64,000 nt of DNA from Thermoleophilia bacterium (GTDB taxonomy: Bacteria; Actinomycetota; Thermoleophilia; RBG-16-64-13), in NCBI GenBank assembly GCA_027493445.1, contig JAOSKU010000001.1:1803936-1867935 (forward strand), written 5' to 3'. Shown in pieces: positions 3,340 through 46,421 of this stretch; the first letter of the stretch is position 1, and every line of letters starts with the position of its first letter. The notes under the pieces are model-generated. The model was not told the DNA's origin and ran no database searches. It was given only the letters and a program-made list of their open reading frames with translations. The position numbers and the translations under genes are program-made.

Positions 3340-4211
3340 ACCACGTCCGCGAAGGTCCGCTCCATGCGGCGGAAGTACACGGCCCCGCTGAACAGCAAAG
3401 CCAAGGCGACCGCCGCCGAGACGAGCACCATGGGACCCGGGCGCGACTGGGTGCCCAGAAGGGCCCAACGGAAACCCTCAACCACGCCGACCATGGGGTT
3501 CACTCCGTAGACGGTCCGCCAGGGCTCGCCCAGAAGGCTGCTGGGATAGGCGATGGGCGTGGCGAACAGCCAGAGCTGGGTCAGAAACGGGACAGTGTAG
3601 CGCACGTCGCGGTACTGAACGTTGAGGGCAGAGAGCCACAGCCCGACGCCCAGTGATGTCGCCAGGGCAAGGAGCAAGAAGGCCGGCAGCCACAGCAACC
3701 GTGTCGTCGGTAGGAGACCATAGGCCACGATCATCACCACCAGGACCCCGAAGGCCAGGAGGAAGTCGACTAGGCCGGAGAGCACGGTCGCGATAGGCAC
3801 CACTAACCGGGGGAAATACACCTTCGTGATGATGTTCTGGCTTGCGACGAGGCTCTCCGTGGACTGACCGAGCCCGTAGGCGAAGAATGTCCAAGGAACC
3901 AATGCGCAGAAGGCGAACACTGGGTAGGGCGCCCCTTCCGACGAGATGCCGGCTAGACGCCCGAAGAAGAGGCTGAAGATCAGCATCGTAAAGACGGGCT
4001 GCAGCACCGCCCAGGCCACCCCGAAGGCGGTCTGCTTGTAGCGGACCTTGATGTCACGCCAGGCGAGGAAGTAGAGGAGCTCGCGATACTCCCATAGGTC
4101 TCTGAGGTTTAGCGCAGCCCGACCGGTGGTCGGGCGCACGCGGGTGACGCGGATAGGAGGAATGGACAGGTTCAGTCGGACACCTAGGTCGTGGTTCTCT
4201 TGGGCATCCAT
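3336..4211 (-). CDS. wzm: ABC-2 type polysaccharide-export permease (Wzm)
   Basis: Six predicted TM segments and the conserved N-terminal LRDLWEYRELLYFLAWRDIKVRYKQT motif. The preferred start is MDAQ at 4211; the track ORF extends to 4340. The stop is coupled to the wzt start. Confidence 0.8.
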   Translation of the reverse strand: MDAQENHDLGVRLNLSIPPIRVTRVRPTTGRAALNLRDLWEYRELLYFLAWRDIKVRYKQTAFGVAWAVLQPVFTMLIFSLFFGRLAGISSEGAPYPVFAFCALVPWTFFAYGLGQSTESLVASQNIITKVYFPRLVVPIATVLSGLVDFLLAFGVLVVMIVAYGLLPTTRLLWLPAFLLLALATSLGVGLWLSALNVQYRDVRYTVPFLTQLWLFATPIAYPSSLLGEPWRTVYGVNPMVGVVEGFRWALLGTQSRPGPMVLVSAAVALALLFSGAVYFRRMERTFADVV

Positions 4212-4361
4212 CCGACCTTGCTTTCCCCGTCGCTGGACCGGAGCGTAGTATACACGAGTGCCATGCTCGCACGCCGTCACCCCCGGGTCTATGGCAGGCA
4301 CGCGAGAAGTAGAGAAGCTTGCGGTTAGGGTAGAACCCACGAGCCGAGAGGATAGCCTCAG

Positions 4362-5481
4362 GTGAGAGACATACCTGTCGCATCAGCCGATCTTAGCGGT
4401 AACGAGGAGCGCTACGCGGTGGAGGCCATCCGCAGCTCGTGGGTCTCTTCCACGGGCGACTTCGTCACACGCTTCGAGAAAGACTTCGCCGCCCTTTGTG
4501 GTACCCGCTCGGCCATCGGTGTCTGCAACGGCACTATCGCCCTGCACCTAGCCCTCCTGGCCCTCGACGTGCGGCCCGGAGACGAGGTGCTGGTGCCCGC
4601 CCTCACCTATATTGCTACCGCCAACGCCGTGCGGTACGTGGGCGCCGAACCCGTGTTTGTCGATGTCGACCCCGAAACCTGGTGCATCGATCCCGAGAGA
4701 CTCGAGCCGGCCATGACCCGCCGAACCCGGGGCATCATCCCGGTGCACCTCTACGGGCATCCGGCCGATATGGACGCCATCAATCACATCGCCGCGATCC
4801 ACGGGCTCTGGGTGATCGAAGACGCAGCCGAGGCCCACCTCGCGCACTACAAAGGGCGACCCGTCGGTGGACTTGCACGGATGGGCACGTTTTCCTTCTA
4901 TGGAAACAAGATCTTCACCTGCGGCGAAGGCGGGGCGGTCACCGTCAACGACCCCCACCTGGAAAAGCGCACGCGCACCTTGAGGGGCCAAGGGGTCGAT
5001 CCCACTCGGCGCTACTACTTCCCCGTGACGGGTTATAACTTTCGGTTGACGAACCTTGCCAGCGCCCTTCTCTGTGCCCAGCTCGAGCGGCACGAATCAA
5101 TAATCGCCCGGCGCAAAGAGATCTTCCTCCTCTACCGAGAGCAGCTGGCCGAGATCCCCGGCATCGACTTCCAGCCTCGGGCCTCCTGGGCGGAGCCCGC
5201 TCCCTGGCTCTTTTGCATCACCGCCAACGCCGACCGCTTCGGGCGCACCCGCGACGAGCTCATGGACATGCTGGCCGAGCAGCAGATCGACACACGGCCC
5301 TTTTTTGTTCCCCTGCACACTCTCCCCCTTCAGGGAGGAGTCGCTCCGTCGTGGCGACGAGCTCCCCGTGACGGTCGTCCTCGGCGCCTCGGGGCTCAAC
5401 CTGCCCACCTACAGCCAGATGAGCGACAGCGACGTCGAACGGGTGTGCGCCGCGATCCGGAAGGCGGCCCGTGCCTCGTGA
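4362..5481 (+). CDS. DegT/DnrJ/EryC1/StrS family PLP-dependent sugar aminotransferase; apparent +1 frameshift at poly-C/poly-T tract near 5312-5330
   Basis: The N-terminus has the family motifs (SSWVSSTGDFV..FEKDFA, GTFSFYGNKIFTCGEGGA with the lysine). The true C-terminus (LPVTVVLGASGLNLPTYSQMSDSDVERVCAAIRKAARAS stop) is in the +1 frame and ends at TGA 5479-5481. The track fuses it with the next gene only because the wrong frame stays open. Confidence 0.8.
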
Positions 5482-5504
5482 TCGTGCACGGGGAAGCCTG
5501 CAAC

Positions 5505-6188
5505 ATGCCCGGCCTTTGGCCCCTCGACGCGCCCGTAGTGATCGTTGGAGCCGGCGGGTTTGCCCGCGAAGTGCTGGGTATTTGCTACGACTTGGGTGTG
5601 GACAACCGCGTCGCCGGCTTCATCGATAGGCAGGACGTATCCCACCCAGACTTGCTCGACGGCAAGCCGATATTGGGCAACGACGGCTGGCTCGCCGCCC
5701 AAACCGAGTCCCGTCTCCGCTTCATCGTGGGGATTGGAGACAACCCGCTCCGCCTGCGCATTGCCCGACGGCTAGAGGCGGCCGGCCTGCATCCCGCCAC
5801 CGTGATCTCCCCGCGTGCGATCGTCTCCCGGTTCGCCTGCATCCATCCCGGCTCCATGATCTGCGCGGGCGTCATCGTGAACACCAACGTCACGGTGGGC
5901 GCACACTCGATCGTGAATCTCAACTGCACCCTCGGGCACGATTCGATACTGGAGCCTTTCGTCAACCTCGCCCCTGGGGTAAACGTTTCAGGGTACGTCA
6001 CTCTGCATGAAGGCGTGTATGTGGGCAGCGGCTCGGCCATCAACGAGCACCTGGAGATCGGCTCCTGGACCATCATCGGGTCCATGGCCGCGGTCAACCG
6101 TGACCTACCGGCCAATGTGACCGCTGTGGGGGTTCCAGCAAAGCCCATCAGGACCCGGCCCGCCGGGTGGCAGCTCGGCGGCTCGTGA
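5505..6188 (+). CDS. Sugar N-acetyltransferase, NeuD/PglD/PglB family (left-handed beta-helix hexapeptide repeats)
   Basis: An N-terminal Rossmann-like VVIVGAGGFAREV motif followed by hexapeptide-repeat segments (IHPGSMICAGVIVNTNVTVGAHSIVNLNCTLGHDSIL...). Own ATG at 5505, 24 nt after the aminotransferase stop. Confidence 0.8.
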   Translation: MPGLWPLDAPVVIVGAGGFAREVLGICYDLGVDNRVAGFIDRQDVSHPDLLDGKPILGNDGWLAAQTESRLRFIVGIGDNPLRLRIARRLEAAGLHPATVISPRAIVSRFACIHPGSMICAGVIVNTNVTVGAHSIVNLNCTLGHDSILEPFVNLAPGVNVSGYVTLHEGVYVGSGSAINEHLEIGSWTIIGSMAAVNRDLPANVTAVGVPAKPIRTRPAGWQLGGS

Positions 6189-36682: not shown

Positions 36683-37066
36683 TCAGAGCCTGACTCCATC
36701 GCGATCGATGTTGCGCAGTAGCTCCGGGTTCGGGGAGCGTTCGGGATGCTCCCACTCCTCGTCCCAGATGGGGAGCGGTTGGATCAAGATGCCCGTCTCC
36801 AGAAGGACTTCGTAGGCGATGTCTGCCAACGCGAGCTTGGTGTCGAGAAAGTTGCCCCGAGGCCCTCGCAACAGAACCGCGATGTCCACGTCGCTGTCGG
36901 GCCGATGATCACCTCGCGCCTGGCTGCCGAAAAGGAGGGCGCCCACAAGATCGTACTGCTGCGCCGCCTTCGCGAGAAAGGCGCGGGCTGCCCGCTCAGT
37001 ATCGGCGTTGATTGTGGTCGCCTGCACGCTGGTCTCGCTATCGCGCTGATTGGTGATCGATTCCAT
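36683..37066 (-). CDS. mnt: MNT nucleotidyltransferase
   Basis: GALLFGSQARGDHRPDSDVDIAVLL. Confidence 0.8.
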   Translation of the reverse strand: MESITNQRDSETSVQATTINADTERAARAFLAKAAQQYDLVGALLFGSQARGDHRPDSDVDIAVLLRGPRGNFLDTKLALADIAYEVLLETGILIQPLPIWDEEWEHPERSPNPELLRNIDRDGVRL

Positions 37067-37408: not shown

Positions 37409-37693
37409 ATGATCGTGGGTCGCGAGTACTCCATAGCCGAAGCGCGCAACCATCTCTCCCAGGTGGTCAGATTGGCGGAGCACGAGGGAGCAGTAGAGCT
37501 TACCCGCCGGGGAAAGCCGGTGGCGGTTGTGGTCTCGCGTGACGAGTTCCTGCGCCTGCAGACCCCCGCCGGTGAACCGTTCGGCTTCCTGGACAGGTTC
37601 CGCGACGAGCACGACGTCGACCACTGCGGTCTCGAACCCGATGACATGGCTGGACTCAGAGACCCCCACCCCGGCCGGACCGTCGCGCTGTGA
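37409..37693 (+). CDS. phd: Phd/YefM-family antitoxin (family Z)
   Basis: MIVGREYSIAEARNHLSQVVRLAEHEGAVELTRRGKPVAVVVSRDEF. Confidence 0.8.
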   Translation: MIVGREYSIAEARNHLSQVVRLAEHEGAVELTRRGKPVAVVVSRDEFLRLQTPAGEPFGFLDRFRDEHDVDHCGLEPDDMAGLRDPHPGRTVAL

Positions 37694-38121
37694 GGCCCTA
37701 CTTCCTTCTCGACACCTGCATCCTGTCCGAACCTGTCATGCGCCGGCCGAACGCGGACGTGATGGCGCGTATCCTCGAGCACCGGCACGAGGTGGCCACT
37801 GCAGTACCCGCCTGGCACGAGATCACCTACGGCTGCCGCCGCCTACCTCCGTCGCGGAAACGCACCCTCATCGAGGACTACCTGGCTGCGACCGCGTCAT
37901 CTGGGCTCCCAATACTGCCCTACGACACCGCCGCCGCCACCTGGCATGCGGCTGAACGCGCCCGCCTCGAACGTGCCGGCGCCCTTCCCTCCTTCGTCGA
38001 TGGCCAGATCGCGGCCGTGGCCCACAGCAACGATCTCGTGCTCGTCACACGCAACGTGACCGATTTCCAGAAGTTCGCCGGCCTCCGCGTGGAGAACTGG
38101 TTCGAGCCTTCAGAGAGCTGA
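37690..38121 (+). CDS. vapC: VapC PIN toxin (family Z)
   Basis: YFLLDTCILSEPVMRRPNADV...LVLVTRNVTDFQKFAGLRVENW. 4-nt overlap with phd. Confidence 0.85.
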   Translation: MRPYFLLDTCILSEPVMRRPNADVMARILEHRHEVATAVPAWHEITYGCRRLPPSRKRTLIEDYLAATASSGLPILPYDTAAATWHAAERARLERAGALPSFVDGQIAAVAHSNDLVLVTRNVTDFQKFAGLRVENWFEPSES

Positions 38122-38219: not shown

Positions 38220-38942
38220 ATGCAGCCCATGCTGCAGCGGGGCCGACCTCGGGGGCGGGGAGCTACGAGAGCGGCACCACGGCGAGGTCGGTTTGAGCGA
38301 AGTCCCGTCCCGGGCAGAGCAAGTGCTGGTCGGCCAGTTTGGCTACGGCGTAGCTCATGCAGTCCCGTAGTTCGGGGCCGCAGGATGCCGGACCCTGCCG
38401 AAGCGCAGGAACGCCTCCGTCGCTTCGTCCCAATGGGCGGCAGCGAAGGGCACCACTGCGATCTCGTACTCCTGAAGGAATCGAGCGAGCTTGGGGCGCG
38501 CGTCGCGATCGAAGCGGGCCGACAGCACGAGCGCGGCCTCGGTCAACGTGGGCGCCCCCACAGCCAAGGGCTCATCGCGATCGATGCGACCCTTCGTGCG
38601 CACCGTGCGGCAGATGGTGTGGGAGGACCAGGTCCTAGGAGGCCGTTGAAGAACGAAGCCCCGGCCGCCCTTCCGGCGCACGACGAGATCGACTTCGCGG
38701 TCGAGCACCTGCAGCAGAAGGAGGAGCTTGTCCACGGACCTACGGCAGTTGGTCGGGTCGAGCAGCCGGTAGAGCTGCGCGGGAGACGTCCCCAGCCGCC
38801 GAATTATCTCCCGCTTCGAGAGCGGACTCTCCGCGACGGCCCTCTCGGCCTCGAGGGCCAGGCGGTAGAGAAGGAAATCGCGTAGGTACGGGATCCGGAC
38901 GCGAGCCCATACCATCATGGAGCAGCCCACGTGCGTGGGCAT
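38220..38942 (-). pseudogene. Chimeric ORF: HTH-type N-terminal segment fused to the C-terminal two thirds of a family-X vapC, itself frameshifted
   Basis: ..SKREIIRRLGTSPAQLYRLLDPTNCRRSVDKLLLLLQVLDREVDLVV.. then ..EPLAVGAPTLTEAALVLSARFDRDARPKLARFLQEYEIAVVPFAAAHWDEATEAFLRFG. The C-terminal ..QTDLAVVPLS lies in another frame. Confidence 0.5.
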
Positions 38943-38971: not shown

Positions 38972-39908
38972 TCAGGTTCCTCTAGCTTCCAATCGCTGTC
39001 GCAAGTTCTGCACTTTCCAGGCCATGACGGGGTCCATGGATGCCCGCTCGAGCACACCCGGATACTCGGCCAGCAGTAGCACGGGGCGATACACCGCGTC
39101 CTCACCGAGCAAGCGCATGAACTCCCGTTCGGCCTCGGAACTCGAGCTCAATGGAGAGAGCCACCGCGCCACCGCCTCAAGCATGACCACGTGGCTGGGC
39201 GCCTCATCAGCTCGAAGCATCGCGAACAAAGGGTCAATGAATTCAGGTGCCGGATGGCGGAAGCGTTCCAGCGCGACCACCGGGTCTGTCACGAACGGGA
39301 ACGGGTCCGATGTGCAGATCGCTCGGACCGCGAGCGCCCGAGCAAGCGGGTCCTCCAAGAAGTCCAACACTGTGACGGCCAGCCGGTAAAGGTCGTACAG
39401 GTCCCGCGCGGCCAGGCGCTCCATCATGGCCTTGATCTTTCCGGCCACGAGTTCTGGCAGCCGCAGCGCCGGAAATGAGATCGGCGGGTCCGCGAATTCA
39501 CATGTCCGGTTTTCCGGCTCCAACAAGGGCACGCGGGCAAGGTAGCTGACGTCCACCTTCACGTGGCTACCCGGGTACTTCACGCGGTAGGTCTGACCGC
39601 TGTGCTCGTCGTTCGTACTCTGGACAAGATACCCGAGTGCTCCCACAACATCGCGGCATATCCACCTCCGCCCGCATGGAGCGCATGCCTTTCGCATCGG
39701 CGGCGCCCACGAACATGAGGTCGATGTCGACCGATAGCCTTGGCGCACGATCATGAAAGACGTTGAGCGCCGTCCCGCCGTGTAGAACAAAGACATTGCC
39801 CAACATCGGGTCCTCCCTGAGCGCCGAGAGTACCTCGAGCAGGCGCTCGACTTTGTCAACAACAATGGGGGCGAATCCGATCGGTAGAGTGAGAATGGGC
39901 CGGGTCAT
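38972..39908 (-). CDS. abiEii: AbiEii/AbiGii-family nucleotidyltransferase toxin (type IV TA), frameshift near 39700
   Basis: NTase motif VFVLHGGTALNVFHDRAPRLSVDIDLMF in ORF 39567-40067. C-terminal ..KIKAMMERLAARDLYDLYRL in ORF 38972-39865. The start overlaps the abiEi stop (ATGA). Confidence 0.7.
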
Positions 39909-40714
39909 CCTCGAGTCCACTCGCGATACGGTAGATCGGCCGGAACGTAGAGACGCCAACGGGCAACGAATTCCCGTTTGGACTCGCCAATGGCGGGAAG
40001 GAGCCGATAGGTCCCCCTGCCGAGCAAATCGCGCATCTCCTCGAGCACGGATGTGTCGACGCGCCAACTGTCGGCGAACATCTCGAGTGTCCAGCCGGCG
40101 CGGGCAGCCAGCGTCGGAGAGCCCAGCAGTCGCGCGTAGGCCGCGACTCGCTCGGGCGACATCGATGTGAACCCGCCGACACTGCGTAGCAGTTCTTCGA
40201 GCCCTCCGGCAAGACTCGGGTCGCGAAGGCAGTCGACGAGCGTGCGCTCCTTGGTGCTCACCGGCACTATCGCCTGCCCCGCTCTTATGCGTGTCACGAA
40301 CCCGCTCAACGTAGCTGAAGATCCCGGCACCAGAGGCGGCGCTACGCGACGGAACCGATAGCCGCGTACCTCGAAGTCACGTATCTTGGTGACAGAGGTG
40401 AAATACACGGTCCGCAGGGGCGAATGCGCAACGCCGTGCGCCTCGAGGGCTGTGTGGTGAGTAAGGACGGCATCTTTGGCAGCCTTCGCGGCTACCAGGT
40501 AGACATTGGGGACCCGATCGCGATACACGCCAATATTCGATGCATACAGACCCCGCCTCACTCGATAGGCCGAACCCCGCGCCACAGCGTTTTGCAGGTT
40601 TGCATAGCGAGTGCGTTCTGATACCGTCGGATCGACGCTAGCCACGTACTCCTCGAGGGTGAACACTTCATGGTCCTCGAGGAAACGGAGCGTCGCCGAG
40701 GCCTTGGTGTTCAT
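39905..40714 (-). CDS. abiEi: AbiEi-family antitoxin/transcriptional regulator
   Basis: 269 aa COG5340-like protein immediately upstream of the AbiEii gene. The promoter has the ATACGTAT palindrome and a TATTATAAC -10 element close to the ATG. Confidence 0.75.
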   Translation of the reverse strand: MNTKASATLRFLEDHEVFTLEEYVASVDPTVSERTRYANLQNAVARGSAYRVRRGLYASNIGVYRDRVPNVYLVAAKAAKDAVLTHHTALEAHGVAHSPLRTVYFTSVTKIRDFEVRGYRFRRVAPPLVPGSSATLSGFVTRIRAGQAIVPVSTKERTLVDCLRDPSLAGGLEELLRSVGGFTSMSPERVAAYARLLGSPTLAARAGWTLEMFADSWRVDTSVLEEMRDLLGRGTYRLLPAIGESKREFVARWRLYVPADLPYREWTRG

Positions 40715-40827
40715 AGCGCGGTTATAATACGTATATTCTTGTGCATTACGTGCCCATCATAACACCAGAACAGCCAACAAGCGAGATTGCTCCTCCGGCC
40801 CTCTCGTTTCATGACTACCAAGGCGCC

Positions 40828-41113
40828 CCTCTTCCTTCTCGACACCTGCATCCTGTCCGAACCTGTCATGCGCCGGCCGAACGCGGACGTGATGGCGCGT
40901 ATCCTCGAGCACCGGCACGAGGTGGCCACTGCAGTACCCGCCTGGCACGAGATCACCTACGGCTGCCGCCGCCTACCTCCGTCGCGGAAACGCACCCTCA
41001 TCGAGGACTACCTGGCTGCGACCGCGTCATCTGGGCTCCCAATACTGCCCTACGACACCGCCGCCGCCACCTGGCATGCGGCTGAACGCGCCCGCCTCGA
41101 ACGTGCCGGCGCC
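40828..41113 (+). repeat. Perfect about 286-nt direct duplicate of vapC(Z) 37700-37985; embedded in truncated ORF 40787-41152
   Basis: The two copies are identical base for base as far as I can align by eye. The copy ends inside the gene (..ERAGAL then unrelated TTHAAPRAVCL stop). The upstream context differs from copy 1. Confidence 0.8.
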
Positions 41114-41318
41114 CTCACCACCCACGCCGCGCCCAGGGCGGTTTGCTTGTAGCGCACCTTGACGTCGCACCAAGTGGGGAAGCAGACGAGTTCCCGATAT
41201 CGCCAAAGCTCGGTGAGACGAAGTGAAACTCACCCCCGAGACGGCTGGATGTGGCGCGGGCGCTCGGGTAGGAGGTCGGCCGGCACCGCAAGATCGGGCG
41301 AAGACCGGCCCGGCGCGG

Positions 41319-41666
41319 TCAGCGGTCTGCGCGCTGTCTCCTGAGAGCGGCGGCGACTCCAAAGGCGTGGAAGTAGCCGTGCCAGCTACGGGCGGTCGAA
41401 CCGAACCGGTTCTCCCCCAGGAAATAGTCGAGGAGGACCTCCCTGAGGCGGGTCAACTCCTTCAGGCGATGCCGATGCCGCGGATCTCCGATCGTCAGCT
41501 CGAGGAGCTCCAGCGCCCGCTCGAGTGCTTTCTGGCTGTAATCGGGGTTGCATTTCGCCGCCCAATTGAGCGCCCGCTCGACTTCGCTCCCCACGTTGGC
41601 CAACTGCTCGAGGAGGGTGAAGTCCCGCCACCGGCCAGCGGCCAACTCTGGATGCTGTACGCTCAT
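41319..41666 (-). CDS. Conserved hypothetical protein (115 aa), downstream partner of a translationally coupled pair
   Basis: MSVQHPELAAGRWRDFTLLEQLANVGSEVERALNW... No family confidently recognised. ATGA overlap with the upstream ORF. Confidence 0.5.
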   Translation of the reverse strand: MSVQHPELAAGRWRDFTLLEQLANVGSEVERALNWAAKCNPDYSQKALERALELLELTIGDPRHRHRLKELTRLREVLLDYFLGENRFGSTARSWHGYFHAFGVAAALRRQRADR

Positions 41667-42004
41667 GGTTCGAGCAGGGCTTCCACGATAGCGAGGACCC
41701 GGTCCCGGAGCACGGGATCGTCAACCCCGCGCGAACGGTTCCCCTGCGACGGGCGGATGTTGATCATGGAATCGAACTCGACGCGATCCGGGCCCGACAG
41801 CTCTGGATAGATGTTGATGCCCCAGAGGTCTTTCTGGGCGGACCCGTGTTCCAGGAGCAATGCTTCTTCGTCGGCGTGGAGCTCCCCGTCGACCGCCATA
41901 ACGCCGCGCTCCACATCGACGACGGCTTTGACGAGATCTCCAAACCCTGCCTGGGCCATGATCTCCAGGTCCGTGGTGGGGATGGGGTTGTCGATGATCT
42001 TCAC
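41663..42004 (-). CDS. Conserved hypothetical protein (113 aa), possibly DUF5674-like
   Basis: MKIIDNPIPTTDLEIMAQAGFGDLVKAVVDVERGVMAVDGELHADEEALLLEHGSAQKDLWGINIYPE. Coding-like codon bias. Confidence 0.5.
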   Translation of the reverse strand: MKIIDNPIPTTDLEIMAQAGFGDLVKAVVDVERGVMAVDGELHADEEALLLEHGSAQKDLWGINIYPELSGPDRVEFDSMINIRPSQGNRSRGVDDPVLRDRVLAIVEALLEP

Positions 42005-42026
42005 GGCCCGAATATAGCAGGCATGG

Positions 42027-42293
42027 CTACCTGGCGCTGGGTCGAGTGGCGGTCGAGAGGCAGCCGGCCAGATCGATGAACCGAGCCTTGCCCACGGTGG
42101 TCAGTTGATCACCCATGGCCTTGGCGGGCTTCCCTCTCAGCGTGACCAGAGCCTCGCTGGGATAAACAGGCTCCATGTTGCTCGTGAGCGGCACCACCTG
42201 CACCCGGTTCAGGTGCCGGTTCGAGGCGTCGTTGCTGATGATGAGCGCCGGGCGTTCTTTGCGAACGTTTGCGCCGTACGAGCATCTGGTATC
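42027..42293 (-). pseudogene. MazF/PemK toxin lacking N-terminus and with replaced 3' end
   Basis: ..GANVRKERPALIISNDASNRHLNRVQVVPLTSNMEPVYPSEALVTLRGKPAKAMGDQLTTVGKARFIDLAG.. A 90-nt near-identical copy of its 3' part is at 51518-51606. Confidence 0.5.
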
Positions 42294-42539
42294 ATGTACG
42301 GCATGGACGAGACGAAGCTTACGGTACGTATCCCGCGGGAAACGCTCGACGAAGCCAAGCGCTACGCTCGCGAGCACGACACCACGGTGAGCCGGTTGGT
42401 CATCACGCATCTCGAGCACTTGCGCCGAGACGACGACGCGCTCGCCGACGCACCCATCACGCGACGGCTGGTCGGTGCGCTCGCTCCCGAAGCCTCCATC
42501 CAGGAGTACCGGGACTACCTCGAGCGCAAGTATGCCTAG
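42294..42539 (+). CDS. Ribbon-helix-helix antitoxin
   Basis: MYGMDETKLTVRIPRETLDEAKRYAREHDTTVSRLVITHLEHL. Confidence 0.65.
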   Translation: MYGMDETKLTVRIPRETLDEAKRYAREHDTTVSRLVITHLEHLRRDDDALADAPITRRLVGALAPEASIQEYRDYLERKYA

Positions 42540-43023
42540 GAGGCCCCGGGTCCTGCTCGATGTCAACGTGGTCCTCGACGTGCTCCAACGTCGCGAGCCC
42601 TTATTCGAGGATTCCGCCTCCCTCATGGCCGCCGTGGAATCGGGCCGCTGCGAGGGTCTGATGGCCGCGCACACCGTCACCACCCTGTTCTACCTAGTGA
42701 CCAAGCACGCCTCCGCTGCAGTTGCGCGCGTCCAGGTCGTCGAGTTGCTCCGACTGCTCAAGGTGGCCCCCGTGGATCAAGGGGTGCTGGAAGAGGCGCT
42801 GGCTCTCCCGTACGGCGATCTCGAAGACAGCGTGCAGATGGCAGCCGCCGAGCGCGCCGGTGCGGAATACTTGGTGACGCGCGACCGAGCGGGCTATGCC
42901 GCCGGTCCCCTCCCCACCCTCACGCCCGGTGAGCTCCTAGGGCCTGGTGGGCGAGGTCTAGCTACCACACGGCGGAGAAGAAGGATGCGATTTCGCAGCC
43001 GGAGCCACGTAAGCGCCCCCTAG
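42532..43023 (+). CDS. PIN-domain toxin
   Basis: MPRRPRVLLDVNVVLDVLQRREPLFEDSASLMAAVESGRCEG... Overlaps the RHH stop. Confidence 0.75.
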   Translation: MPRRPRVLLDVNVVLDVLQRREPLFEDSASLMAAVESGRCEGLMAAHTVTTLFYLVTKHASAAVARVQVVELLRLLKVAPVDQGVLEEALALPYGDLEDSVQMAAAERAGAEYLVTRDRAGYAAGPLPTLTPGELLGPGGRGLATTRRRRRMRFRSRSHVSAP

Positions 43024-43076
43024 ACCACCCTCCTTTGCCCCACCGCCGCCACACGGGGGCGGAGGCCGCCGTTGAG

Positions 43077-43472
43077 CTACGCGAGCGGTACCAGGGCGAG
43101 GTCGGTTTGAGCGAAATCCCCTCCCAGGCAGAGCAAAGGCTGGCCGGCCAGCTTGGCCACGGCGTAACTCATGCAGTCCCCGTAGTTCAAGGCCGCGGGA
43201 TGTCGGCCCTTGCCGAAGCGCAAGAAGGCCTCCGTCGCTTCGTCCCAATGGGCGGCGGCGAAAGGCAAGACTGCGATCTCGTACTCCTGAAGGAATCGAG
43301 CCAGCTTGGGACGCGCATCGCGATCGAGGCGGGCCGACAAGACGAGCGTGGCCTCAGTCAACGTGGGCGCCCCCACAGCCAGGGACTCATCGCCTTCAAG
43401 ACGGTCCACTACGGCTTGGAAGCCCGGCTCACGCAGGACAACGGCCACCATGGCCGAGGTGTCGAGGATCAT
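43077..43472 (-). CDS. vapC: VapC PIN toxin (family X paralog)
   Basis: 131 aa, closely similar to 18022-18417. Confidence 0.85.
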   Translation of the reverse strand: MILDTSAMVAVVLREPGFQAVVDRLEGDESLAVGAPTLTEATLVLSARLDRDARPKLARFLQEYEIAVLPFAAAHWDEATEAFLRFGKGRHPAALNYGDCMSYAVAKLAGQPLLCLGGDFAQTDLALVPLA

Positions 43473-43741: not shown

Positions 43742-44233
43742 GATCCCTCCGCTACCCGCGTATCACCTGATGCCCATGATACCAGAATACTGAACGAATA
43801 CACCAAGCAGTAATACCGTCGCGATCCGGGGCACGATCATTGCGTGAGCAGGACCACCTCACGTCCTTCCAAGTCCGTATCCTCCTTGTGAGACGCATGG
43901 GCCCGCCGACCTCGGACCGAGGTCGCGCAGAAGCCCGCGTGGCCTTGCTCCACTATCGCGACGCGGGTCGGACGGACGGCCAGGCACTCGGCCTCGTCCA
44001 GGCCCCGGGTCCAGCTCGATGTCAAGGTCGTCCTCGACGTGCTCCAGCGTCGAGAGCCCTTTTTCGAGGACCGCGCCTCCGTAATGGCCGCCGTGCAATC
44101 GGGAGGCTGCGTACCGGGATCTTCGGCCATGCGGACGAGGAGATTGTGAAGTACCTGAGCCACCTCCCCCCGGGGCATGCTCGACCAGGGGCTCAGATCG
44201 GCCAGCGGGGTCCCCTCCAACAGATCGTTGTAC

Positions 44234-45278: not shown

Positions 45279-46421
45279 CTAGACCAAGCGCCGCAGCAAC
45301 CCTTCCAAATCTACGACGGTGGCTTCGGTGGTGCCTCCTAGGCCCACCTTGTACTCTCGGCTCAGCACCGGAACCACCACCACCGCCTCCGCTTCCGAGT
45401 AGGCGCGTTTGAGCGCGGCGAGCCCGCTCACATCCCGAAGGGACGCTTCAGACCAGGTGCATTCGACGGCCAGTAGACCGCGCCCCCGGCGCATGACCAC
45501 GAAATCCACTTCCTGCCCGTGCTTCGTCCGCCAGTATCGCGGTTTTACCAAGGGAGCGCGGGCATGGATCTCGTTCAAGACGTAGTGCTCCCAGAAGCAG
45601 CCATAGTCTTCCGGTCGCGGCGAGGCCAGGCCCCGGGCGTGACGAACAAAGCCGGTATCAAGCGCATAGACCTTGGGGGCCTTGACAATCTCCGAGGCCC
45701 GACGGGTGGAGAAGGGAGCAAGGACATGGGCCACCCTCGTTTCCTGGAGCACCTGCAGGTAGTTCGAGATCGTGGGACGGCTCGCCTCGCAGGGACCGGT
45801 GTAAGTCGTCGCCTCAAAGATTCCTCCGCTGTTCAGCAGCAGCATCTCCGTGAAGCGCCGAAACGAACTGCGCCGCTCAATGCGGAAGAGCTCCTGGATA
45901 TCTCGAGCCCAGAACGCATCGAGCCATTCCTCGAACTCTGCCGCGGCGCTATCTGTCCCCCCGAGAAAGAAGGGGGGAACCCCGCCGTTCCAGAGGCGGG
46001 TCTCCAGACTTCCGCCGAACTCCTCAAGATCACGGGACATCATGGGCGTCAACCACACCGCTACTTTGCGCCCCGCGAGGGTATCCGAGAATTTGGCCGT
46101 AGCGGCCAGGGTCGAGGAGCCGGTCGCCACCACCTTGACATAAGGGTAGTGATCCGCTGCGATCTTGAGCACCTCGGAGGGACGGGGCAGCCGGTGGATC
46201 TCGTCAAGCACAATACGCTTGCCCCGAAGACCCGCCAGAAACCGCTCGGGCTCAGCCAACTGCCGCCGCACAGTGGGCAGCTCACAGTCGAAATACTCGG
46301 CAGAATCCAAACTCTGACAGAGAGTCGTCTTGCCGATGCGGCGGACGCCAAACAGCCACACCACCGAACGCCGCCGCCACCCTTCTTCGATTCGTTCTAT
46401 CCAGAAGCTTCTTTGAACCAT
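45279..46421 (-). CDS. DUF4143/COG1373 AAA+ ATPase
   Basis: Walker A GVRRIGKTTL and Walker B RIVLDEIHRLP. 380 aa. Confidence 0.8.
   Translation of the reverse strand: MVQRSFWIERIEEGWRRRSVVWLFGVRRIGKTTLCQSLDSAEYFDCELPTVRRQLAEPERFLAGLRGKRIVLDEIHRLPRPSEVLKIAADHYPYVKVVATGSSTLAATAKFSDTLAGRKVAVWLTPMMSRDLEEFGGSLETRLWNGGVPPFFLGGTDSAAAEFEEWLDAFWARDIQELFRIERRSSFRRFTEMLLLNSGGIFEATTYTGPCEASRPTISNYLQVLQETRVAHVLAPFSTRRASEIVKAPKVYALDTGFVRHARGLASPRPEDYGCFWEHYVLNEIHARAPLVKPRYWRTKHGQEVDFVVMRRGRGLLAVECTWSEASLRDVSGLAALKRAYSEAEAVVVVPVLSREYKVGLGGTTEATVVDLEGLLRRLV

Follow-up and report, generated by a model that had tools for sequence, protein, structure and literature searches.

The question raised by this locus is what two small, overlapping genes of no assigned function are doing in the middle of a toxin–antitoxin (TA) island. 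The genes, here called A and B, lie in a 64,000-nucleotide stretch of DNA from a Thermoleophilia bacterium (contig JAOSKU010000001.1 of assembly GCA_027493445.1, positions 1,803,936 to 1,867,935), which was analyzed as a whole and is referred to below as the window. The pair and the elements that appear to govern its expression are as follows, with lengths in amino acids (aa) and nucleotides (nt).

41663..42004, minus strand: gene A, GTG start, 113 aa; a DUF5674 protein and candidate effector.
41319..41666, minus strand: gene B, ATG start, 115 aa; candidate antidote or partner of A.
41663..41666, minus strand: ATGA overlap of the A stop codon and the B start codon; putative translational coupling.
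42011..42019, minus strand: extended −10 promoter-like box TGCTATATT, read from the sequence, its end 6 nt before the GTG of A.

The answer that we favor, at a probability of roughly one half, is that the two genes form an autonomous, horizontally mobile cassette and a TA-like pair with the toxin gene first, in which the DUF5674 protein would be the harmful effector and B its coupled antidote.

A and B are real genes and not chance open reading frames (ORFs), because A matches a Pfam family and B has many homologs. The match of A to PF18924 (DUF5674) scores 122.9 bits against a gathering cut-off of 27 bits, with E = 7.7e-36, and covers profile positions 2–108 of 109; all 36 aligned A homologs match the family too. 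For B, 1598 homologs were found in a library clustered at 90% identity, the best 120 of them at least 67% identical, and 1688 cluster representatives in a library clustered at 50% identity. Proteins identical to A and B are already on record from a Thermoleophilia metagenome-assembled genome (MAG) as a "DUF5674 family protein" and a "hypothetical protein". The window contains a single copy of the pair, whose G+C content of 0.637 agrees with the 0.645 of the window as a whole. A sequence-only reading of this DNA had described minus-strand ORFs of 113 and 115 aa joined by an ATGA overlap, placed inside a TA island with AbiE on one side and mazF/PIN genes on the other, and had tentatively proposed DUF5674 for the upstream protein. 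The coordinates, the overlap and the gene calls bear this description out, and the proposed family proved correct over the full length of the profile.

The pairing of A with B was examined by a scan with an A alignment of one genome per GTDB species (185,579 species genomes), which matched at least 600 stretches, 591 or more of them encoding relatives; the best 80 were analyzed. B lies downstream of A on the same strand in all 80 of these best loci, and look-ups through B placed A upstream in four of four cases. The 80 loci span more than 20 phyla, and the lineages represented include Thermoleophilia and other Actinomycetota, Aminicenantes and other Acidobacteriota, many bacteria of the candidate phyla radiation (CPR), Margulisiibacteriota, Elusimicrobia, Omnitrophota, Planctomycetes, Gemmatimonadota, WOR-3, a chlamydial Simkaniaceae MAG, NC10, Bacteroidetes and Proteobacteria. 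Of 85 pairs from many phyla, 60 have stop and start codons that overlap by 4 nt; in nearly all of the rest the spacing lies between −17 and +7 nt. The 159 nearest upstream and downstream neighbor proteins fall into about 170 Pfam families, none of which recurs in more than two loci, and no third conserved gene or conserved neighborhood was seen among the loci examined. The A/B pairing is conserved, small, co-directional and independent of its flanks, as TA modules generically are. The sequence-only reading had proposed a two-gene addiction or defense module and had named homologs that are never co-located, or a clear assignment to housekeeping families, as evidence to the contrary; the outcome favors a module. 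The obligate, coupled, autonomous and context-switching character of the pair stands, and a defense-island setting does not hold in general.

The way in which the pair is distributed also resembles that of TA modules. Identities among the A proteins track those among the B proteins (matrix correlation r = 0.55, Mantel p = 0.001), as expected for genes that are inherited together. In 35 of 72 cases a locus and its nearest relative share a phylum, identity averages 0.61 within phyla versus 0.54 between them, and pairs from different phyla reach 78–79% identity. In two MAGs the pair is present twice, on different contigs (L026 and L038; L018 and L043). In three loci, namely the window, L002 and L168, the last being a close relative whose A is 99% identical, the pair sits among TA genes. 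By these comparisons the distribution appears accessory, patchy and horizontally mobile, as is that of TA modules.

The polarity of the pair was approached by comparing how often each partner has decayed beside an intact copy of the other. One arm consisted of a JGI metagenome scan via B, which gave 80 loci with an intact B, 70 of them with enough upstream sequence; the other consisted of the GTDB loci found via A, where 79 of the best 80 were informative. In the first arm A is intact in 56 of 70 loci and destroyed in the remaining 14, through at least 13 different deletion alleles. In the second arm, a single locus has a damaged B beside an intact A, and in one other (L040) an insertion lies between the two genes. 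The difference between 14/70 and 1/79 is significant (Fisher p = 1.5e-4). The lesions in A include near-complete deletions that leave a mini-ORF of 14–15 codons or fuse B to the −10 box (L101, L108, L110, L115/L116, L143), in-frame internal deletions (L090, lacking residues 58–86; L092, lacking 36–63; others in L099, L141, L144 and L127) and truncations (L113, L159). Most of these natural deletions take out the conserved polar core of A, and nearly all remnants keep the −10 box, the first codons of A and an ATGA or GTGA junction on the B start. Orphan B genes score much like paired ones, with a median hidden Markov model (HMM) score of 155 versus 159 (p = 0.21) and a mean of 0.50 versus 0.60 mismatches at 36 invariant positions. 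A frameshifted A beside an intact B is also present in an Acidobacteriota MAG (L001). On the finished plasmid Cy782202 of Gloeothece verrucosa PCC 7822 (L170, about 1950–2280), the DUF5674 gene has an in-frame stop and no annotated coding sequence; the partner gene downstream of it, CYAN7822_RS31055, is undamaged, with an ISAs1 transposase close by. Because A is often destroyed beside an undamaged B and the converse is rare, B would be harmless alone and A costly, with A repeatedly eliminated. The pattern is as expected if A is the toxic or costly part of the pair and B the protective part, and it suggests these roles.

The sequence in front of A points to an unusual mode of expression. In the window, TGCTATATT (42019–42011) is followed by cgggcc and then by the GTG start, with no Shine–Dalgarno (SD) sequence between. 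When loci are aligned on the A start, an extended −10 element (TGnTAnnnT) ends 6–7 nt upstream, without an SD, in about half. A TANNNT motif ending 4–10 nt before the start was found at 44 of 84 A start codons (37 at 6–7 nt; 26 with TGn), compared with 43 of 296 starts of neighboring ORFs and 107 of 1700 random positions. When the last base of the box is relaxed, 59 of 84 loci qualify; an SD-like motif is found instead in 13 of 84. On the basis of a −10 box at the start codon and no SD, we infer that the A mRNA is leaderless and begins at or near the start codon. Translation of B seems to rely on coupling to that of A, because the overlap is common and few B genes, 16 of 83, have an SD-like motif in front of them. 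A sigma-70 scan requiring both −35 and −10 elements found nothing, and one terminator-like site was found on the other strand. The upstream DNA beyond the −10 box showed no conservation between unrelated loci, and no Rfam element was detected around the pair at E ≤ 1. In L168 the distance from the end of an intact PemK/MazF gene to A is 22 nt, and the same 22 nt separate the stop of a MazF remnant (42027) from the A start (42004) in the window; read-through into the pair from upstream is therefore also possible.

The AlphaFold model of A, which is an acidic protein (pI 4.3), is of the alpha/beta type (predicted local distance difference test score, pLDDT, 84; predicted template modeling score, pTM, 0.80), with the order b-a-b-b-a-b-a-b-loop-a. 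The most conserved segment of the protein is the loop of residues 80–91 (INIRPSQGNRSR), which has a pLDDT below 50 and is predicted to be flexible or disordered. A is more conserved than B, with a mean pairwise identity of 0.59 versus 0.51. Foldseek searches of PDB and BFVD gave no significant fold neighbor for A, and sequence and profile searches, including those of PDB, gave nothing apart from DUF5674. Neither A nor B matched the PADLOC-DB v2 defense models at E ≤ 1, and neither had a match in NCBIfam or PHROGs. Several specific identities were considered for A and set aside. For an MNT-type nucleotidyltransferase (NTase), G54-S55 is followed by D58 after 2 residues, which is the wrong spacing for hG[GS]-x9-13-D-h-[DE]; no NTP_transf_2 or Polbeta profile matched A, and no NTase structure appeared among the Foldseek matches. 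MazG-like, PIN, RES/ART and other toxin folds, considered from patterns of conserved residues, were supported by no search. A ferredoxin-like fold is a tentative lead for A: Cas2, VapD and other proteins of this type share the b-a-b-b-a-b order of elements, but none of them came up in Foldseek, and the Asp that ends strand 1 is not invariant.

B is basic (pI 9.4) and is modeled by AlphaFold as a four-helix bundle (pLDDT 91.9, pTM 0.85; helices 18–37, 41–60, 62–83 and 92–114). The sequence-only reading could not place the downstream protein in a known toxin or antitoxin family, and the searches agree: no family match was found in Pfam, NCBIfam, PADLOC or PHROGs, no weak Pfam match recurred among 65 diverse members of the B family, and sequence and profile searches of PDB found no relative. 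Foldseek against PDB returned only non-significant generic bundles (FliS, MIT, designed proteins), all with E > 0.8. A 65-sequence alignment of the wide family shows an invariant R31 and at least 90% conservation of H5, W13, Q21, G26, R50, E53, L54, E70, Y98 and F99. A loose likeness to HEPN proteins, suggested earlier for a basic, helical segment of B, did not hold up. The RHRHR segment (63–67) is kept only in close relatives and is replaced elsewhere by DPKN-K, DPRW-R and others, and there is no conserved Rx4-6H motif. The sole conserved His of the 65 sequences is H5, which lies N-terminal to every conserved Arg, and no HEPN fold or profile was matched by Foldseek against PDB or by family profile searches. 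The B search also returned three proteins (P0256, P0303 and P0309) in which a fragment of A is joined to a complete B in one frame; P0256 consists of A residues 1–42 and B, and P0303 of A residues 37–113 and B. These chimeric proteins are either natural products of deletion and fusion or assembly artefacts; with A in fragments and B complete, they agree with the decay pattern described above.

More distant homologs of A are found in cyanobacteria. DUF5674 homologs with 37–48% identity are carried by 24 large plasmids, 13 of them conjugative, from Nostoc, Trichormus, Anabaena, Calothrix, Aulosira and Gloeothece, and these proteins are likewise high-scoring, full-length matches to PF18924. B gave no tblastn match in the plasmid collection. 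In all seven cyanobacterial loci examined, a gene for a helical protein of 115–124 aa overlaps or directly follows the DUF5674 gene, and these partners form one family (HMM E ≤ 3.5e-12) for which no Pfam match was found. Homology of B to this family was considered and is not established (hhalign probability 2.3%, E = 0.021; HMM about 8 bits); the hhalign alignment is in register. The cyanobacterial partners are acidic, so that pairing of an acidic with a basic protein is not general. The polar core of A (K26, D30, H43, E47, S55, Q57, S79, N82, R84, N89) is kept in the cyanobacterial homologs too. Because these residues are kept despite the unlike cyanobacterial partners, the core, including the flexible loop, would serve a function of A itself and not a B-specific interface.

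Taken with the decay pattern, these features allow a mechanism to be proposed. Transcription from the −10 box would give a leaderless mRNA that starts at A, and B would be made by termination and reinitiation after A, which would tie each round of A synthesis to synthesis of B. The basic four-helix bundle of B would bind and neutralize the small acidic A protein. The ten conserved polar residues of A, together with its flexible loop containing Arg and Asn, would form an intrinsic catalytic or target-binding site. Free A would be harmful or costly and B harmless, and lineages would be able to delete the core of A and keep the promoter, the junction and an intact B. A more specific version, which we put forward tentatively and hold to be less probable than the pair's TA-like nature, is that DUF5674 is an unrecognized enzymatic toxin whose fold has no solved relative and whose polar core and Arg/Asn loop act on a conserved cellular target, paired with a new four-helix antidote in a leaderless, coupled arrangement that operates in more than 20 phyla, with CPR bacteria and cyanobacterial plasmids among its carriers.

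Several observations weigh against a toxin-first TA pair. No sequence likeness of A or B to a known toxin, antitoxin or defense protein was found in Pfam, NCBIfam, PADLOC or PHROG, neither protein has a PDB fold neighbor by Foldseek, and no DNA-binding domain that could serve autoregulation was recognized in either. An acidic upstream protein followed by a basic downstream one is the usual arrangement of antitoxin and toxin, and the conservation of both proteins is higher than is usual in TA pairs. The neighbors of the pair are mostly housekeeping or metabolic genes (RecA, gyrase, tRNA synthetases, PFK), with few defense or mobile genes. The decay of B beside an intact A does occur, in L046, where B is truncated. 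The two arms of the decay comparison were drawn from different collections (GTDB genomes versus JGI metagenomes), with the best 80 matches taken from each. Finally, if B is useful by itself, one would equally expect it to be kept and expressed once A is lost.

This last point leads to the alternative that survives best, although we regard it as rather unlikely. In a non-toxic accessory two-protein system, B would be the functional core, for example a helical regulator, chaperone or stress protein, and A a dispensable enzyme or modulator. Such a system would account for a B that remains intact and apparently expressed after A is lost, its promoter and junction being kept, and for the high conservation of both proteins and the enzyme-like polar core of A. 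It also fits the lack of any match to TA or defense profiles, the mainly housekeeping neighbors and the presence of the pair in CPR bacteria with small genomes. However, if A were merely useless without B, decaying loci with A alone should be about as frequent as loci with B alone, and just 1 of 79 loci was of the former kind. Every orphan B locus keeps remnants of A, so the losses look recent and no stable B-only lineage is apparent. The patchiness, the near-identity across phyla, the multicopy genomes, the plasmids and the TA islands fit a selfish module.

The classical type II polarity, in which the acidic upstream A would be a labile antitoxin and the basic downstream B the toxin, is improbable by comparison. 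Gene order, protein sizes and the pairing of pI 4.3 with pI 9.4 are as this arrangement would have them, and coupling would yield at least as much A as B. This was also the polarity implied by the sequence-only reading, and the decay counts of 14/70 versus 1/79 contradict it: the 14 loci with an intact B, a retained promoter and a destroyed A would be lethal if B were the toxin. Furthermore, A is the more conserved protein and has a polar core, unlike typical antitoxins, B has no Rx4-6H or other recognizable catalytic motif and no likeness to a toxin fold, and the acidic partner in cyanobacteria shows that the charge pattern does not apply throughout. An ordinary, vertically inherited housekeeping pair that lies in a TA island by chance is very improbable: high conservation, partial clustering by phylum (0.61 within versus 0.54 between) and a G+C content matching the host would agree with it, but not the patchy-looking distribution (at least 600 stretches in 185,579 species genomes), the missing conserved synteny, or the cross-phylum nearest relatives, plasmid copies, multicopy genomes and frequent loss of A.

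A number of observations concern individual copies of the pair. Of the two MAGs with two copies, one has copies that are 98% identical with similar upstream DNA, and in the other, WOR-3 UBA2258, the two share just 78% identity, which points to separate acquisitions or to a duplication long ago. In L040, an 883-nt insert (875–1757) between A and B carries a small helical antitoxin-like ORF. On either side of the insert is an imperfect repeat of about 65 nt that contains a palindrome (cctaacc...gcaactt...gtt[ag]g), and these repeats are reminiscent of integron attC sites; the B gene of this locus starts with GTG and has a GGAGG ribosome-binding site of its own. Within IMG/VR, the pair was found on one contig only (L174, IMGVR_UViG_3300029813_000619, 3416–5681), a predicted viral contig of 33 kb. 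The pair is at its extreme end, about 600 nt downstream of a gene that, judged by eye, resembles a tyrosine recombinase/integrase, and may lie at a prophage–host junction. In IMG/VR this contig was the only one found for A, and no relative of B was found. A phage origin was considered and is not supported, as there was no tblastn match in 50,697 phage records, no BFVD fold and no PHROG match.

The island around the pair in the window holds the following genes.

38972–39865: AbiEii, downstream of the pair.
39905–40714: AbiEi, downstream of the pair.
36683–37066: MNT gene, in the same island and on the same side of the pair as the AbiE genes.
37690–38121: vapC (PIN) gene, on the AbiE side, which has Phd/YefM and PIN genes.
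40787–41152: truncated PIN ORF, just downstream of B.
42027–about 42280, minus strand: PemK/MazF remnant, upstream of A.
42105–43023: DUF6364 and PIN_3, a divergent pair upstream of A that abuts the MazF remnant.
43077–43472: PIN gene, upstream of A.

A 300-nt direct repeat, 98% identical, connects 37695–37994 with 40825–41124. The copy at 40825–41124 represents a fragment from the 5′ end of the vapC gene 37690–38121 and produces the truncated PIN ORF; in the close relative L168, an intact Phd–PIN pair lies directly downstream of B. From this repeat and the intact pair of L168, the AbiEi/AbiEii pair and neighboring genes seem to have been inserted or rearranged in the window. The Pfam match of the PemK/MazF remnant spans profile positions 14–96 and no plausible N-terminus is present; its counterpart in L168 is intact (97 aa) and preceded by antitoxin-like genes. 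Further direct repeats of 88–90% identity connect 38260–38578 with 43074–43393, that is, the PIN region 38355–38942 with the PIN gene 43077–43472, and 42541–42652 with 44000–44111, which ties a portion of the PIN_3 gene to sequence around 44000. The repeated stretches are paralogous TA genes of one island. A few kb from the pair, a minus-strand ORF of 380 aa (45279–46421) is ATPase-like, with AAA_14 and DUF4143 as judged by eye. AAA_14 with DUF4143 is the sole domain combination found twice among the immediate upstream neighbors of the pair in other genomes.

If the toxin-first reading is true, DUF5674 would gain a role, and the unnamed B family, with about 1,700 clusters at 50% identity, would gain both a partner and a role. 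No mention of DUF5674 or PF18924 was found in the literature searched, the PF18924 family carries no assigned function, and the downstream partner, leaderless arrangement and decay asymmetry of DUF5674 are undescribed in the sources searched. The pair would represent a new TA family built from two folds without solved relatives, whose toxin activity or target would probably be new, and its purely coupled, leaderless expression logic would be compact enough to work across phyla. The comparison of partner decay may also serve to assign the roles of toxin and antidote without experiment. The A/B family is large, phylogenetically broad and entirely unstudied. Homologs are present in cultured and tractable cyanobacteria, namely Nostoc punctiforme PCC 73102 (pair NPUN_RS34590/34595) and Trichormus variabilis ATCC 29413 (pair AVA_RS27300/27305), and the hypothesis is therefore directly testable.

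Three known systems offer points of comparison. The best fold matches of B, which are non-significant (TM 0.5–0.58), are FliS chaperones, which are likewise small antiparallel four-helix bundles. FliS-type bundles bind an extended or disordered segment of their partner, and by analogy the disordered loop of A could be the segment bound by B. However, with E-values of 0.9–6, identities of 12–16% and no motifs in common, the likeness of B to FliS is probably one of generic bundle geometry. The MNT-HEPN system (MntA-HepT) shares with the pair the succession of an alpha/beta protein of about 110 aa and an overlapping helical bundle of about 115 aa. It differs in that A lacks GS-x(9-13)-D-x-D and an NTase fold, and B lacks Rx4-6H and any HEPN match.

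The closest parallel is with toxin-first type II TA modules. In higBA and hicAB, both type II modules, the toxin gene comes first. The same gene order is known from other modules, for example mqsRA (PMC6918082). Like these three, the pair consists of two small co-directional overlapping genes in an autonomous cassette that is patchy, horizontally spread, multicopy, plasmid-borne and present in TA islands, and the toxin-like partner appears to be lost first with the orphan antidote kept. Its expression is probably leaderless, as in many TA operons of Actinobacteria; among those of Mycobacterium tuberculosis, leaderless transcripts reportedly predominate (PMC8485053). Unlike type II modules, A and B have no sequence or fold likeness to known families and no recognizable DNA-binding domain, the candidate toxin is strongly acidic, and both partners are much better conserved. 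Provided that A proves to be toxic, the novelty would lie in a TA-like two-gene module made from two unrecognized folds.

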